This document shows, piece by piece, positions 3,679 to 26,182 of a DNA stretch of 36,807 bases. The position numbers and the translations under genes were made by a program. The notes below the pieces were generated by a model that saw only the letters and a list, made by a program, of their open reading frames with translations, had not been told where the DNA came from and made no database searches. The DNA is taken from the NCBI GenBank assembly GCA_903832855.1, contig CAILDB010000009.1:1-36807 (forward strand). The letters are read 5' to 3'. The stretch is from an uncultured bacterium. Lineage in GTDB: Bacteria; Patescibacteriota; Minisyncoccia; Phycocordibacterales; GWA1-40-21. Every line of letters begins with the position of its first letter. Within the stretch, counting starts at the first letter, position 1.

Positions 3679-4641
3679 ATGAAAAAAGTTGCGATAATTG
3701 GTCGTGGTGCCATAGCGGAACATCTATCAGCTCGGCTTGAATTGATGGATATTGATATTTGTTTTTCTTATACAAGGAGCCACATAGGGATCCCGTTCGG
3801 AGACTTAATTGCTCACGAACGTCCGCAAGCAGTATTTCTTGCAATCTCAACTCTGGATAGGGGTCAGGCGGCCAGAGATTATATTCTCAAGTGTGTGGAA
3901 TATGGAATTCCGGTAATCACCTGCGAAAAAGGAGCCCTTGCTTATCATGCGGAAGTTTTGAAACCTCATCTCAGCAAAATTGGTTTTAGCGCCACAGTCG
4001 GCGGTGGAACCAGAATGCTAAAGTATGTGGTGGATAGACATCTTGTGGGTAAGAAGGTGGAAATTCACGCTGTCATCAATGGAACACTCAACTTTATTTT
4101 TGATGAGTTGAGACATAGCGGACGGTCAATTGGTGAGGTATGTAACGAAGTGTTTAAGTCAGGTTATGCTGAACCAGGAGCAAATGATTCGCTGAGTTTA
4201 ATCAATGGAGAACTTAAGGACGTGCGGATGAAGACCTGTGATTTCTTCAACACTGTTCTTGCGACAGAAAGGCTCATCACTCCCGATGAATTTGGTTTGC
4301 TAAAGTTGACTGATGATGACCTTGAAAACTTGAGCGAGGAAGGAGGGGACTATCGTCTGGTCGTTTCTTTTTCAAATCACAAATCGGTGAAAGACCACCC
4401 TCGTTTTGGTAGGCAATTTGGTTTGCACTCGGTTGATGGTTGGCACATTACGGGATCTTTTCGCCAAATCACGCAGGCTTCACAACTTCTATCTTGGCTT
4501 CCGGGAGGAGTTGGAAATGCCGTTCACATTATTGAAGGCGAACTTGGTTCGGGCGGTAAGTATACACTGTCTGGACCGGGTGCCGGACACGAGCCGACGA
4601 CATCGGCGATGCTTGCTGACTTTGAAGAATTGTGTGTCTGA
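3679..4641 (+). CDS. Homoserine dehydrogenase-like protein (divergent, no ACT domain)
   Basis: N-terminal VAIIGRGAIA Rossmann start, FSATVGGGTRMLKYV, VINGTLNFIFDEL and GYAEPGANDSL motifs resemble the homoserine dehydrogenase catalytic domain. AGGAG Shine-Dalgarno at 3666-3670. GC is visibly higher: about 48% by hand count of line 3961-4020. Confidence 0.65.
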   Translation: MKKVAIIGRGAIAEHLSARLELMDIDICFSYTRSHIGIPFGDLIAHERPQAVFLAISTLDRGQAARDYILKCVEYGIPVITCEKGALAYHAEVLKPHLSKIGFSATVGGGTRMLKYVVDRHLVGKKVEIHAVINGTLNFIFDELRHSGRSIGEVCNEVFKSGYAEPGANDSLSLINGELKDVRMKTCDFFNTVLATERLITPDEFGLLKLTDDDLENLSEEGGDYRLVVSFSNHKSVKDHPRFGRQFGLHSVDGWHITGSFRQITQASQLLSWLPGGVGNAVHIIEGELGSGGKYTLSGPGAGHEPTTSAMLADFEELCV

Positions 4642-5611: not shown

Positions 5612-5701
5612 TGGCGGAAGGGGCGAGATTCGAACTCGCGGACCTCTTACGAAGTCAACACCTTAGCACGGTGTCTCTTTAGACCACTCAGACACCCTTC
5701 C
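5612..5701 (-). tRNA. tRNA-Ser(GCU), type II with long variable arm, CCA encoded
   Basis: The reverse complement reads GGAAGGG-TG-TCTG..., with anticodon stem-loop ACACC-GTGCTAA-GGTGT (anticodon GCT), variable arm GACTTCGTAAGAGGTC, T arm GCGAG-TTCGAAT-CTCGC and acceptor CCCTTCC-G-CCA. Confidence 0.9.
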
Positions 5702-23533: not shown

Positions 23534-23562
23534 TTGCCTAATCAGGTCCTTTCTGTTATATT
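23534..23562 (+). promoter_or_regulatory. Promoter TTGCCT-17-TATATT (TG-extended) for tRNA-fMet
   Basis: TTGCCT at 23534-39 and TGTTATATT at 23554-62. The tRNA starts at 23575. Confidence 0.65.
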
Positions 23563-23574
23563 TAAACCCATTAT

Positions 23575-23645
23575 CGCGGGGTGGAGAAGCGGTATCTCGC
23601 AAGGCTCATAACCTTGAGGCACACGTTCGAGTCGTGTCCCCGCAA
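23575..23645 (+). tRNA. tRNA-Met(CAU), initiator type (C1 x A72 mismatch), CCA not encoded
   Basis: CGCGGGG-TG-GAGA-AGCGGTA-TCTC-G-CAAGG-CTCATAA-CCTTG-AGGC-ACACG-TTCGAGT-CGTGT-CCCCGCA-A. The unpaired 1:72 position is the bacterial initiator hallmark. Confidence 0.85.
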
Positions 23646-23652
23646 CATGTTT

Positions 23653-23697
23653 AAAGAAAGACGGCCCCGACATCGGATGTCGGGGCCGTCTTTCTTT
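23653..23697. terminator. 21-bp perfect hairpin flanked by an A-run and a T-run (bidirectional terminator-like)
   Basis: AAAGAAAGACGGCCCCGACAT-CGG-ATGTCGGGGCCGTCTTTCTTT. Confidence 0.85.
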
Positions 23698-23728
23698 TTC
23701 CCCTAAAGTATATTATATTGGTGAGTAT

Positions 23729-23802
23729 GCCGATGTAGCTCAGATGGTTAGAGCGGGCGTTTCATAAGCGCCAGGTCATTGGTCCGAGTCCAATCATCGG
23801 CA
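23729..23802 (+). tRNA. tRNA with CAU anticodon (elongator Met, or Ile2 if lysidine-modified)
   Basis: GCCGATG-TA-GCTC-AGATGGTTA-GAGC-G-GGCGT-TTCATAA-GCGCC-AGGTC-ATTGG-TCCGAGT-CCAAT-CATCGGC-A. The T-loop has C at position 55. Confidence 0.8.
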
Positions 23803-23851
23803 CAAAATAATATTTGATTTAAGTTTTTTTTTGTGCTATTTTTGTGACTAT

Positions 23852-24130
23852 GCGGGCGTAGTTCAACGGTAGAACGCTCCCCTGTAGACGTGCAGCTTTT
23901 TGTCGAGAGGCAGATTGAAACTCTCTGGGATAACGGTGAAGGCTAAGTTTCGTTTAGAAATATGCGAACACCGTGGGAACCCCTCAAATTTTGAGGGGGC
24001 GCCGTAGAGACTAGATACCGGAGTACCCTAACTCACTGTGTGTGAAGGGTAAAGATATAGTCCATGCCAGTATGAAAATATTGGAAGAAGTGCACGGGAG
24101 AGGTCGTGGGGTCAGCACCCATCGTCCGCG
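23852..24130 (+). tRNA. tRNA-Asp(GUC) gene interrupted by a group I intron in the anticodon loop
   Basis: 5' exon at 23852-23885 and 3' exon at 24093-24130. Acceptor GCGGGCG/CGTCCGC, anticodon stem CTCCC/GGGAG, spliced loop CTGTCAC and discriminator G73. Confidence 0.8.
23886..24092 (+). ncRNA. Group I self-splicing intron, 207 nt, no ORF (IC3-like by resemblance to known tRNA introns)
   Basis: R-like element GTAGAGACTAGA (24004-15); exact S element AAGATATAGTCC (24052-63); P7 GACTA/TAGTC; P4 ACGGTG/CACCGT; P6 8-bp hairpin; P8 TACCCT/AGGGTA; P9 with GAAA tetraloop. Guide sequence GCAG pairs with exon CTGT through a U.G wobble, and the intron ends in a terminal G. Confidence 0.85.
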
Positions 24131-24136
24131 CAAAAT

Positions 24137-24159
24137 AAAGCCCCGGTTGGGGCTTTTTT
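24137..24159 (+). terminator. Rho-independent terminator after tRNA-Asp
   Basis: AGCCCC-GGTT-GGGGCT followed by a T6 run. Confidence 0.8.
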
Positions 24160-24160
24160 G

Positions 24161-24209
24161 TTGCGCGGACGAAGCAAGCAAATGATTTTGCTTGCGTTGG
24201 GTGCTGACC
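24161..24209. repeat. Inverted copy of the tRNA-Asp T-arm/acceptor 3' segment, split by a 26-nt hairpin
   Basis: TTGCGCGGACGA (24161-72) and GGGTGCTGACC (24199-209) are exact reverse complements of 24122-33 and 24110-20. The insert is AGCAAGCAAATGATTTTGCTTGCGTT. Confidence 0.85.
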
Positions 24210-24290
24210 GCCGGAACCATGTTTTTCTAGCAAGAAAAACAGGTGAGGCGCGGCTAGCAAAAATTTTGTGACGACAAAATTTTATGCGGA

Positions 24291-24319
24291 GCCAGCACCG
24301 TTCCCCATCGTCCGCGCAA
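24291..24319. repeat. Direct copy of the tRNA-Asp 3' end
   Basis: CCCATCGTCCGCGCAA (24304-19) is identical to 24118-33. The upstream CAGCACC is also shared, with a 5-nt GTTCC insertion. Confidence 0.85.
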
Positions 24320-24406: not shown

Positions 24407-26182
24407 ATGAATAAAGGCGAGAATATAAGAATTATACAGATAATGGAACAATTTTGGGCCGGTGTTAAACCTAACCGAGTGCCTTTTTTTATATCGTATT
24501 TCTTTTGCTTGGTTACAAACATAGTTGCTGTTTTTGTCCCTCTATTTTACAAAAAGTTTTTTGATTTGCTCGGTCAGTCTGGAGACAAATCACTGATAGC
24601 GAATAACTTGATTCAGATTATTTTTATTATTGCCGGATTGCATTTTGTCATGTGGATTTTTTGGAGAATCTCTGATTTTAACGGCACATTGATGATGTCA
24701 AACGTAATGGCTCGACTCAAACAAAATGCTTTTAATTACATGCTGAAGCATTCTTACGGTTTTTTTACCAACAATTTTACTGGCGGTTTAGTTCAGAGAG
24801 TGAACAGATTTACTCGTGCTTTTGAGTCTCTCAGTAACAGTATCGTTTACCAAATCATACCGCTTACGATTACCATTTTAGGTTCTGTGATTGTTACATA
24901 TTTTATTGCTCCTGTCGTATCCATTTTAATTATTATCTGGATAATTGTATTTGTTATTTTTTCTCTTATCATCTCACAGTGGAAATTAAAATACGATATT
25001 ATTTCAGCAGAGGCAGATTCACAGACGACTGGATATTTGTCTGACAGTATTACAAACAATAATGCAATTTCATTGTTTACAGGTCATGGTTATGAATCGG
25101 ATGCTTTTAAAGATGTAAGTAATAATCAGGCTAGAAAAACAAGATTTTCTTGGTATTTGAGTGATACTATTGATGCTGTTCAATCTTTTTTGATTGTTTT
25201 GATAGAGTTTTTTATTTTTTATTATACGATAAAATATTGGGAAAAAGGTTTTACAACCATAGGAACTTTTGTTTTGGCTCAGACATATATCATAGGTTTA
25301 GCACAACAGCTTTGGGGATTAAATAAAACTATCAGGACAATTTATCAAGGCATTGCGGACGCCAAAGAAATGGTAGAGATACTGGTAAAGCAATATGAAA
25401 TAAAAGATTCACCTGACGCAAAGAAATTATTGGTGAAGAAAGGAGAAATTGTTTTTAAGGATGTTAGTTTTAAATTTGATGAGAACCGTGAGGTCTTAAA
25501 TAATTTAAATTTAACCATAAAGCAAGCGGAAAAAGTCGCTGTCATTGGGCCGTCAGGAGCTGGTAAGACTACTTTTGTTCGTTTGATTATGCGTTTGTAT
25601 GAAATAGTCAAAGGTAAAATAGAAATAGATGGTCAAGATATCAGTGGCGTTACTCAGGATAGTTTGAGAGAGAATATTAGTTTGGTTCCACAAGATCCTG
25701 TTTTATTTCATAGGACTTTGATGGAAAATATTAGATATGGCAGAAGAGATGCTACCGATGAGGAGGTTATTGAGGCGGCTCGTCTGGCACATTGTGCAGA
25801 ATTTATTGATGTTTTGCCGGATAAATACAATACATATGTCGGCGAAAGAGGAATAAAACTTTCTGGAGGAGAAAGACAAAGGGTGGCTATCGCTCGAGCG
25901 ATTCTAAAAAAGGCGCCTATACTTATTCTTGACGAGGCGACTTCAAGTTTGGACTCATATTCAGAATCCTTAATCCAAAAAGCATTGGATAATCTTATGA
26001 AAAATTGCACTACAATTGTAATTGCTCACCGACTTTCCACTATCCGAAAAATGGACAGGATTATCGTCATGGAAGATGGTAAAATAATTGAGGAGGGAAC
26101 ACACGAAGAACTTTCAAACAAAAACAGTGGTCTTTACAAAGATCTTTGGGAACTTCAAGCGGGGGGATTTATTCAGAAGTAG
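24407..26182 (+). CDS. ABC exporter, fused permease/ATPase (MsbA/type I exporter-like)
   Basis: Six-TM domain followed by an NBD with Walker A GPSGAGKTT, signature LSGGERQRV and Walker B ILILDEATS. The track ORF starts at 24284, but that stretch covers tRNA repeats and terminators. Confidence 0.9.
   Translation: MNKGENIRIIQIMEQFWAGVKPNRVPFFISYFFCLVTNIVAVFVPLFYKKFFDLLGQSGDKSLIANNLIQIIFIIAGLHFVMWIFWRISDFNGTLMMSNVMARLKQNAFNYMLKHSYGFFTNNFTGGLVQRVNRFTRAFESLSNSIVYQIIPLTITILGSVIVTYFIAPVVSILIIIWIIVFVIFSLIISQWKLKYDIISAEADSQTTGYLSDSITNNNAISLFTGHGYESDAFKDVSNNQARKTRFSWYLSDTIDAVQSFLIVLIEFFIFYYTIKYWEKGFTTIGTFVLAQTYIIGLAQQLWGLNKTIRTIYQGIADAKEMVEILVKQYEIKDSPDAKKLLVKKGEIVFKDVSFKFDENREVLNNLNLTIKQAEKVAVIGPSGAGKTTFVRLIMRLYEIVKGKIEIDGQDISGVTQDSLRENISLVPQDPVLFHRTLMENIRYGRRDATDEEVIEAARLAHCAEFIDVLPDKYNTYVGERGIKLSGGERQRVAIARAILKKAPILILDEATSSLDSYSESLIQKALDNLMKNCTTIVIAHRLSTIRKMDRIIVMEDGKIIEEGTHEELSNKNSGLYKDLWELQAGGFIQK

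Follow-up and report, generated by a model that had tools for sequence, protein, structure and literature searches.

The catalogue of bacterial tRNA group I intron classes was expanded from 4 to 21 by Williams (bioRxiv 2020, 10.1101/2020.01.27.920355), whose seed alignment includes Wba81.Asp.4Ug, Mba143.Tyr.4Ug, and Pam37.Asn.4Ug. Other described relatives are the IC3 intron in tRNA-Ile(CAU) of Azoarcus sp. BH72 (~205 nucleotides, nt; seed Aol6.Ile2.5Ug) and the Anabaena-type intron of cyanobacterial and plastid tRNA-Leu(UAA). Such introns matter for gene inventories: complete genomes of the candidate phyla radiation (CPR) show full tRNA sets only when intron-split tRNAs are counted (Lui et al. 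2021, PMC8172020). Here, we analyze a 36,807-nt stretch of DNA from an uncultured patescibacterium (Minisyncoccota/Paceibacteria-type; GenBank assembly GCA_903832855.1, contig CAILDB010000009.1), called the window at its full length. Positions 23852-24130 of the window are very probably a tRNA-Asp(GUC) gene that is split between U35 and C36 by a 207-nt, IC3-like group I intron without an open reading frame (ORF). This arrangement was proposed earlier by a model that worked from the letters without database searches (the sequence-only reading), and its central claim, that a compact group I intron lacking an ORF separates nt 35 from nt 36 and has a U.G wobble and a terminal G, held in every test run.

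That reading had also raised tRNA-Asp as a possible new host, which it is not, as Asp.4Ug was already in the 2020 seed alignment. The window intron is a further member of a class catalogued at that time and common in Patescibacteria. It has the tRNA-Asp host, the insertion after loop nt 4, the U at -1, and the G at omega that define Asp.4Ug, and the Wba81 seed, known from bioinformatics alone, shares its insertion after U35, its lack of an ORF, and its size (~200 nt). The two differ in J3/4-P4 (CUAAUUCGGGG in the seed versus GAUAACGGUG in the window) and in J8/7-P7 (AUAAGAUAGUCC versus AAGAUAUAGUCC), and they are 55% identical overall; a single site in tRNA-Asp is therefore probably occupied by two or more intron lineages. 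The closest relatives are instead Tyr.4Ug and Asn.4Ug, which share the guide GCAG, the exon sequence CUGU, P6 (GG-GAA...GCG-CC), the R and S elements, and the P9 GAAA loop with the window intron and differ in the host tRNA. Identity is 69% to the Tyr seed, compared with 53% to Sel1.Leu.3Ug and 50% to the Azoarcus type.

The Azoarcus intron matches that of the window in size, in a P1-P9 plan without large extensions, in its anticodon-loop host, and in an identical R element (GUAGAGACUAGA). Its P9 GAAA loop faces a CCUAAG/UAUGG-type receptor in P5, where the window has GCUAAG/UAUGC. It is inserted one nt further 3' (after nt 36) and is far richer in G+C. Experiments have established self-splicing and structure for Azoarcus, whereas the window intron is known from its sequence. 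The Anabaena-type intron likewise occupies a bacterial tRNA anticodon loop but is inserted after U34, measures ~250 nt, and belongs to another phylum. As the sequence-only reading had noted, the window intron is about the size of the Azoarcus ribozyme (207 versus ~205 nt) and has no + strand ORF within 23886-24092, and thus no homing endonuclease of its own. Two unconserved minus-strand ORFs (24011-24220 and 24033-24260) overlap its 3' part.

We examined the tRNA that excision would produce. Both tRNA halves lie where the sequence-only reading placed them, 207 nt apart (Table 1). ARAGORN with introns allowed reports no tRNA in the unspliced region 23800-24200, but the sequence left after in-silico removal of 23886-24092 is called as a canonical 73-nt tRNA-Asp(gtc), the ligated exons measuring 72 nt; the ARAGORN check that the earlier reading had proposed was thus silent on the DNA and positive on the product. 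The call bears out the claimed 7-bp acceptor stem with one G.U pair and 5-bp anticodon stem and adds a 4-bp D stem; every cloverleaf pair is kept in the exons. The spliced anticodon loop reads CUGUCAC across a predicted 23885/24093 junction of ...CUCCCCUGU/CACGGGAG..., and the discriminator G73, which the earlier reading had judged suitable for Asp, is present in 54/54 intron-bearing tRNA-Asp genes (the window and 53 homologous loci). One relative (locus L123; L numbers denote loci in other contigs) carries the same tRNA cluster with an uninterrupted tRNA-Asp whose anticodon arm equals the window's spliced product.

The exons have two unusual features. The T-loop GUCAGCA (24109-24119) places G at both 54 and 58, positions normally filled by the U54-A58 pair, and the D-arm (23861-23875) has a short 7-nt D-loop, AACGGUA. 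Uninterrupted tRNA-Asp genes with the same T-loop occur in 77 related species; the best of them reaches 95.8% identity with the spliced product. Many of these genes follow gatA at a distance of 1-2 kb, as in the window. T-loop and D-loop variants occur together in 9/54 intron-bearing genes as well as in these 77, and they thus represent a lineage trait rather than damage.

The group I identity of the insert was assessed with the Rfam model Intron_gpI (RF00028), which matches 23861-24084 (+ strand) over its entire length (1-253) with 49.6 bits, an E value of 2e-11 (1-kb search) or 8e-10 (entire window), and a G+C fraction of 0.47 in the match. Homologues of the intron score 30-48 bits on the same model, and the search of the whole window returned no other group I match. 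The minimum free energy (MFE) fold of the window sequence alone (z = -3.5) reproduces P4, P5, P5a, P6/P6a, P7, P8, and P9. All parts of a group I core are present (P3-P4-P5-P6, P7-P8-P9, and the P3/P7 pseudoknot). On the structural features P2 without P2.1 or P5abc, an L9 GAAA opposite an 11-nt-type receptor in P5, and a GNRA L2, the intron is assigned as IC3-like.

Comparative data came from a scan of one genome per species for an R and an S element separated by 25-55 nt. At least 120 loci were retrieved, nearly all from Patescibacteria/CPR, with a few labelled Gammaproteobacteria, Bdellovibrionales, Omnitrophota, or Planctomycetia; many can be aligned with the window across the full 279 nt, exons included. 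Hosts were assigned by enumerating U/G splice sites and requiring a 5-bp anticodon stem, U33, and R37. Among the loci listed, tRNA-Asp(GUC) accounts for 53, tRNA-Asn(GUU) for 15, tRNA-Tyr(GUA) for 9, and tRNA(CAU) for a few, with no clear case in tRNA-His(GUG). Every Asp, Asn, and Tyr intron is inserted after G34-U35, and all of these hosts begin the loop with C32-U33-G34-U35, which pairs with the guide GCAG. The intron family seems to follow this loop start, shared by tRNAs with GUN anticodons. Introns in Asn and Tyr hosts can be as short as 185-186 nt (e.g., L043 2292-2492 and L118 5292-5493).

Pair counts were made on the window plus the 53 tRNA-Asp loci (54 sequences). In the P1-P9 model, 93.6% of 2692 cells are paired, compared with 37-44% in slid controls (partners displaced by 1-3 columns), and 0/500 shuffles match any observed pairing measure. 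Changes on both sides occur in 27/50 pairs, with abundant compensatory changes in P2, P3, P6a, P8, and P9. Found across 54 species, they show that the predicted fold is under selection. P2 has them in 6/6 pairs, with a loop that is mostly GAAA or GAGA among homologues, and the outer P4 pair is U-A in 34 sequences and A-U in the other 20. Within P8, pairing is good at the four outer positions (24024-27 / 24048-51), three of which covary, whereas the two inner pairs are peculiar to the window copy. L9 is GAAA in 52/54 sequences and faces GCUAAG/UAUGC in P5, the majority form, whose G42-C65 pair covaries and which differs by one pair from the CCUAAG/UAUGG GAAA-tetraloop receptor.

The elements named in the sequence-only reading (R, S, P4, the P6 hairpin, P8, P9 with its GAAA loop, the GCAG guide, and the terminal G) are present and, apart from R and S, which the search pattern fixed, supported by covariation across the 54 sequences, and P2, P3, P6 proper (23975-76 / 24002-03), and P9.0 can now be added. 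The exception is its short P5 (23949-52 / 23965-68), which is complementary in the window sequence; with 47.5% of cells paired across the family, the level of the slid controls, it is rejected on the pair counts, and GCUAAG/UAUGC takes its place.

Several points weigh against the group I interpretation. The Rfam score falls 0.4 bit below the gathering score of 50, so the intron is absent from a default Rfam listing and is seen in E-value mode; the covariance-model check proposed earlier gave a full-length match with a low E value and a score just short of the threshold. P7 pairs as claimed, but the R/S search pattern fixed it, and covariation is therefore silent on this helix. The 53 homologues were picked for the same R and S elements, which biases the sample toward intact cores. 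The check for a second tRNA-Asp in the window covers 36.8 kb of the genome. Finally, a literature search from which subscription journals were mostly absent found no experimental study of a tRNA-Asp group I intron. Taken with the evidence above, we consider the intron real, well supported, and probably functional.

The splice sites are set by P1 and P9.0. The 5' site follows U35, which forms the U23885.G23892 wobble with the guide; the exon-guide pairs (CG, UA, GC, UG) are invariant in 54/54, whereas the pair at intron +1 covaries (AU 46, CG 5, GC 2). The first P9.0 pair is AU in 52/54, and the second is always paired (CG 35, UA 14, UG 5). This covariation directly beside the terminal G fixes the 3' splice site, with omega at 24092. 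Moving both sites 2 nt upstream (23883/24091) would again leave a U before the 5' site and a G at the intron end, and the product, with a UGC anticodon, is accepted by ARAGORN as tRNA-Ala(tgc). We regard this shift as having next to no chance of being correct. Pair 3-70 of the product is G3-C70 rather than G3.U70, and the discriminator is G rather than A; U23883 (U33) belongs to an invariant U-A pair of P1, whereas the wobble is U23885; and the alternative omega position is A in 14/54 homologues, in addition to being displaced from the position that P9.0 marks.

A functional gene must also be distinguished from a dead tRNA-Asp pseudogene with a decaying intron, its work done by another tRNA-Asp elsewhere. 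The limited view of the genome, the odd T-loop, and the failure of ARAGORN and Rfam to report the gene at default thresholds would all suit this explanation, which we nonetheless judge very improbable. All intron helices are intact, with compensatory changes across species; the exons retain all cloverleaf pairs and G73, and the T-loop is normal for the lineage. The gene occupies a conserved slot as the last member of a Met-Met-Asp tRNA cluster, which is preceded by a promoter-like site and followed by a terminator-like hairpin. No second tRNA-Asp was found in the 36.8-kb window or near any of the 120 intron loci listed. An identical copy of the intron in another genome, described below, likewise speaks against decay.

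By analogy with established group I chemistry, splicing of the precursor would proceed in two steps. The guide UGCAG (23891-95) would pair with C32-U33-G34-U35 and intron A+1, forming P1 with U35 in the U.G wobble, while the P3-P8 and P4-P6 domains fold and are braced by docking of the L9 GAAA on the receptor-like P5 motif and by the GNRA loop of P2. Free guanosine bound in P7 would attack after U35. The omega-G, positioned by the 2-bp P9.0, would then replace the guanosine, and the 3'-OH of U35 would attack after it, joining U35 to C36 and restoring the GUC anticodon. We found no conserved P10 pairing of the 3' exon start (CAC) with the P1 loop, and L1 varies freely among homologues; the exons are probably held together by the tRNA's own anticodon stem. 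A precedent is the Anabaena pre-tRNA-Leu, in which, as cited in PMC3984707, the anticodon stem brings the exons together (Zaug et al. 1993). Because the CCA is not encoded, it must be added after transcription, and this addition and RNase P would complete the tRNA.

The intron could also be a genuine group I intron but a poor self-splicer that requires a protein cofactor (maturase-like or a chaperone), making it a poor minimal ribozyme. The 5-bp P1 is short, the missing P10 fits this possibility, the G+C content is moderate next to the very stable Azoarcus intron, and LAGLIDADG proteins, some of which act as maturases, are encoded beside many homologues. The window, however, contains no LAGLIDADG gene, and the protein does not go with the intron, since 42/74 such genes elsewhere adjoin an intron-less tRNA-Asp. 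The intron also has the full tertiary braces of self-splicing IC3 introns, namely the L9 GAAA and its receptor motif. We therefore hold dependence on a cofactor to be unlikely, while giving it more weight than a pseudogene or a shifted splice site.

What is new here is the discovery of a 207/207 identical intron in a divergent genome and of the 77 related species that carry the same odd tRNA-Asp without an intron. The copy lies in locus L121, and the exact shared block extends to 236 nt (window 23875-24110 = L121 4438-4673), comprising the 5' strand of the anticodon stem, the whole intron, and the first 18 nt of the 3' exon. Upstream, the two contigs share gene order at 72-79% nucleotide identity (83% over the Met-spacer-Met stretch), and the D-arm, T-loop, and acceptor of their tRNA-Asp genes differ. 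An identical intron amid such flanks, together with the 77 intron-less relatives, indicates that the intron, alone or together with the anticodon arm, was recently acquired laterally, as judged from these comparisons. Counting against co-conversion of the flanks, the 11 + 18 exon nt in the block may instead be identical through constraint. A chimeric assembly was considered and is unlikely, given that separate projects produced the two contigs and that their upstream regions are collinear.

A second case involves two contigs of one metagenome-assembled genome (MAG; SMAG_U12017), which carry the Met-Met-Asp cluster without introns (L260) and with them (L007). In the L007 version, both a tRNA-Met (Rfam 69.8 bits) and tRNA-Asp contain group I introns. 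The regions compared are L007 858-1261 and 2012-2296 and L260 410-745; their outer flanks are 98-100% identical, as opposed to 81% for the tRNA-Met2/Asp 5' exon segment. The intron-bearing tRNA-Met segment of L007 appears inverted. Candidate routes for the movement of an ORF-less intron are reverse splicing, recombination after DNA uptake, and co-conversion by a neighboring endonuclease.

The third route draws attention to a gene found beside tRNA-Asp in other genomes. In L121, a truncated LAGLIDADG ORF (4003-4422) ends 10 nt inside tRNA-Asp. Homologues occupy the same position in most Asp-intron loci, ~18 of them intact, two-motif proteins of ~225 aa (e.g., L062 5756-6430, intact; ~1501-2170 in each of L125-L203), and the TAG stop codon usually coincides with tRNA-Asp nt 8-10. 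Both acidic motif residues are invariant, and the closest solved structure is PDB 2dch, a putative homing endonuclease. Some loci retain C-terminal remnants only. No match to this gene was found anywhere in the window, and none adjoins the Asn or Tyr introns in the loci examined. A protein-first search placed the family in >506 Patescibacteria genomes; the gene abuts tRNA-Asp in all 74 informative best loci, and this tRNA-Asp is uninterrupted in 42 and split in 32. The endonuclease is thus tied to the 5' edge of tRNA-Asp and not to the intron. Strict collaborative homing, in which the protein cuts the empty intron site, is weakened by the same count; the protein cannot simply be an enzyme of that kind.

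Speculatively, repair provoked at the locus by the endonuclease may still help the intron to spread. Patescibacterial tRNA-Asp would then be a shared target of two selfish elements, a LAGLIDADG gene at the 5' edge of the tRNA and an ORF-less intron 34 nt downstream, with the intron spreading through recombination or repair provoked there (trans-homing or hitch-hiking). We offer this as a tentative and, on balance, rather doubtful proposal; if true, it would explain both the 207/207 copy amid 72-79% flanks and the coexistence of intron-plus and intron-minus alleles in one population. The arrangement was not found in our literature search, from which subscription journals were mostly absent.

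The locus is of moderate interest in three respects: annotation, ribozyme work, and intron mobility. The window tRNA-Asp is missed by ARAGORN with introns on, by Rfam at its gathering score, and, by the account of its own paper, by tRNAscan-SE 2.0, which was not designed to detect tRNAs split by group I introns. Because standard tools miss split genes, Patescibacteria genomes will appear to lack tRNA-Asp (and tRNA-Asn or tRNA-Tyr). As a ribozyme test bed, the family offers small size (185-274 nt), many members, rich covariation, and a higher A+T content than the Azoarcus intron. Finally, the identical copy, the intron-plus and intron-minus alleles, and the adjoining LAGLIDADG gene make a tractable case of ORF-less intron movement in tiny genomes.

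Table 1. Coordinates of the split tRNA-Asp gene, its intron elements, and neighboring tRNA-operon features in the window.
Feature	Position	Strand	Description and basis
Sigma-70-like promoter match	23534-23562	+	TTGCCT-17-TATATT with TG; consensus scan, weak evidence
tRNA-Met(CAU) no. 1	23575-23646	+	ARAGORN; Rfam tRNA 59.3 bits; mismatched 1-72 pair, initiator-like
tRNA-Met(CAU) no. 2	23729-23803	+	ARAGORN; Rfam 65.4 bits
tRNA-Asp 5' exon	23852-23885	+	34 nt, nt 1-35, ends G34-U35; homologous exons in 53 other genomes
Group I intron	23886-24092	+	207 nt, no conserved ORF; RF00028 match, covariation, identical copy in L121
P1	23882-23895	+	C32-U33-G34-U35 and A+1 (23882-86) pair with guide UGCAG (23891-95)
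P2 hairpin	23899-23914	+	6 bp, GAGA (GNRA) loop
P3	23923-23928 / 24018-24023	+	99.7% of cells paired; compensatory changes in 5/6 pairs
P4	23933-38 / 23969-74	+	100% paired; encloses P5 and P5a
P5	23942-47 / 23961-65	+	GCUAAG / UAUGC, 11-nt GAAA-receptor-like; motif frequencies, MFE fold
P5a hairpin	23948-60	+	MFE fold
P6	23975-76 / 24002-03	+	GG / CC, invariant
P6a hairpin	23980-87 / 23991-98	+	Compensatory changes in 3/4 tested pairs; MFE fold
R element	24004-24015	+	GUAGAGACUAGA; P7 5' strand: G24007, bulged A24008, GACUA 24009-13; Rfam alignment
P8	24024-29 / 24046-51	+	UACCCU / AGGGUA, 16-nt loop
S element	24052-24063	+	AAGAUAUAGUCC; J8/7 and P7 3' strand (24058-63)
P9.0	24064-65 / 24090-91	+	A24064-U24091, U24065.G24090; directly before omega-G
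P9 hairpin	24067-24084	+	7 bp, GAAA tetraloop; 92% paired; compensatory changes in 5/7 pairs
Omega-G	24092	+	Last intron nt; G in 54/54
tRNA-Asp 3' exon	24093-24130	+	38 nt, C36 to discriminator G73; T-loop GUCAGCA; CCA not encoded
Intrinsic-terminator-like hairpin and T-run	24137-24161	+	Closes the tRNA operon

The window is ordinary chromosomal DNA carrying ligA, gatC, gatA, a gene for an uncharacterized 224-aa protein, the three tRNA genes of the cluster, an ABC transporter, and hisG. At 64% identity, a protein from a MAG labelled Minisyncoccia (phylum Minisyncoccota) is the nearest relative of the 224-aa protein. ARAGORN on the window reports a tRNA-Ser (5612-5701, minus strand) and two tRNA-Met genes and no others. 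The Met-Met-Asp order of the cluster is conserved in L121, L123, and L260. The second tRNA-Met (23729-23803) has a T-loop of UCCGAGU, with C at 55 where U (pseudouridine) is nearly universal. Between the tRNA-Met genes, 23652-23700 forms a perfect ~22-bp GC-rich hairpin flanked by A- and T-runs, resembling a bidirectional terminator; it is 98% conserved in L121 and gave spurious weak Rfam matches to microRNA and ctRNA families.

Past the terminator lie two partial copies of the tRNA-Asp 3' end. The inverted copy (24161-24212, minus) consists of GGTCAGCACCCA, a 25-nt hairpin insert, and TCGTCCGCGCAA, and the direct copy (24290-24319, plus) reads CCAGCACCGTTCCCCATCGTCCGCGCAA. They may be remnants of earlier recombination or integration events at tRNA-Asp. 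L121 has no equivalent of them, and its synteny with the window stops at this point. The longest ORF for the ABC transporter (632 aa) begins at 24284, inside the tRNA-end repeat region. A public gene call on the same contig gives 579 aa and hence a start near 24443, which would make the intergenic region after tRNA-Asp ~310 nt long.

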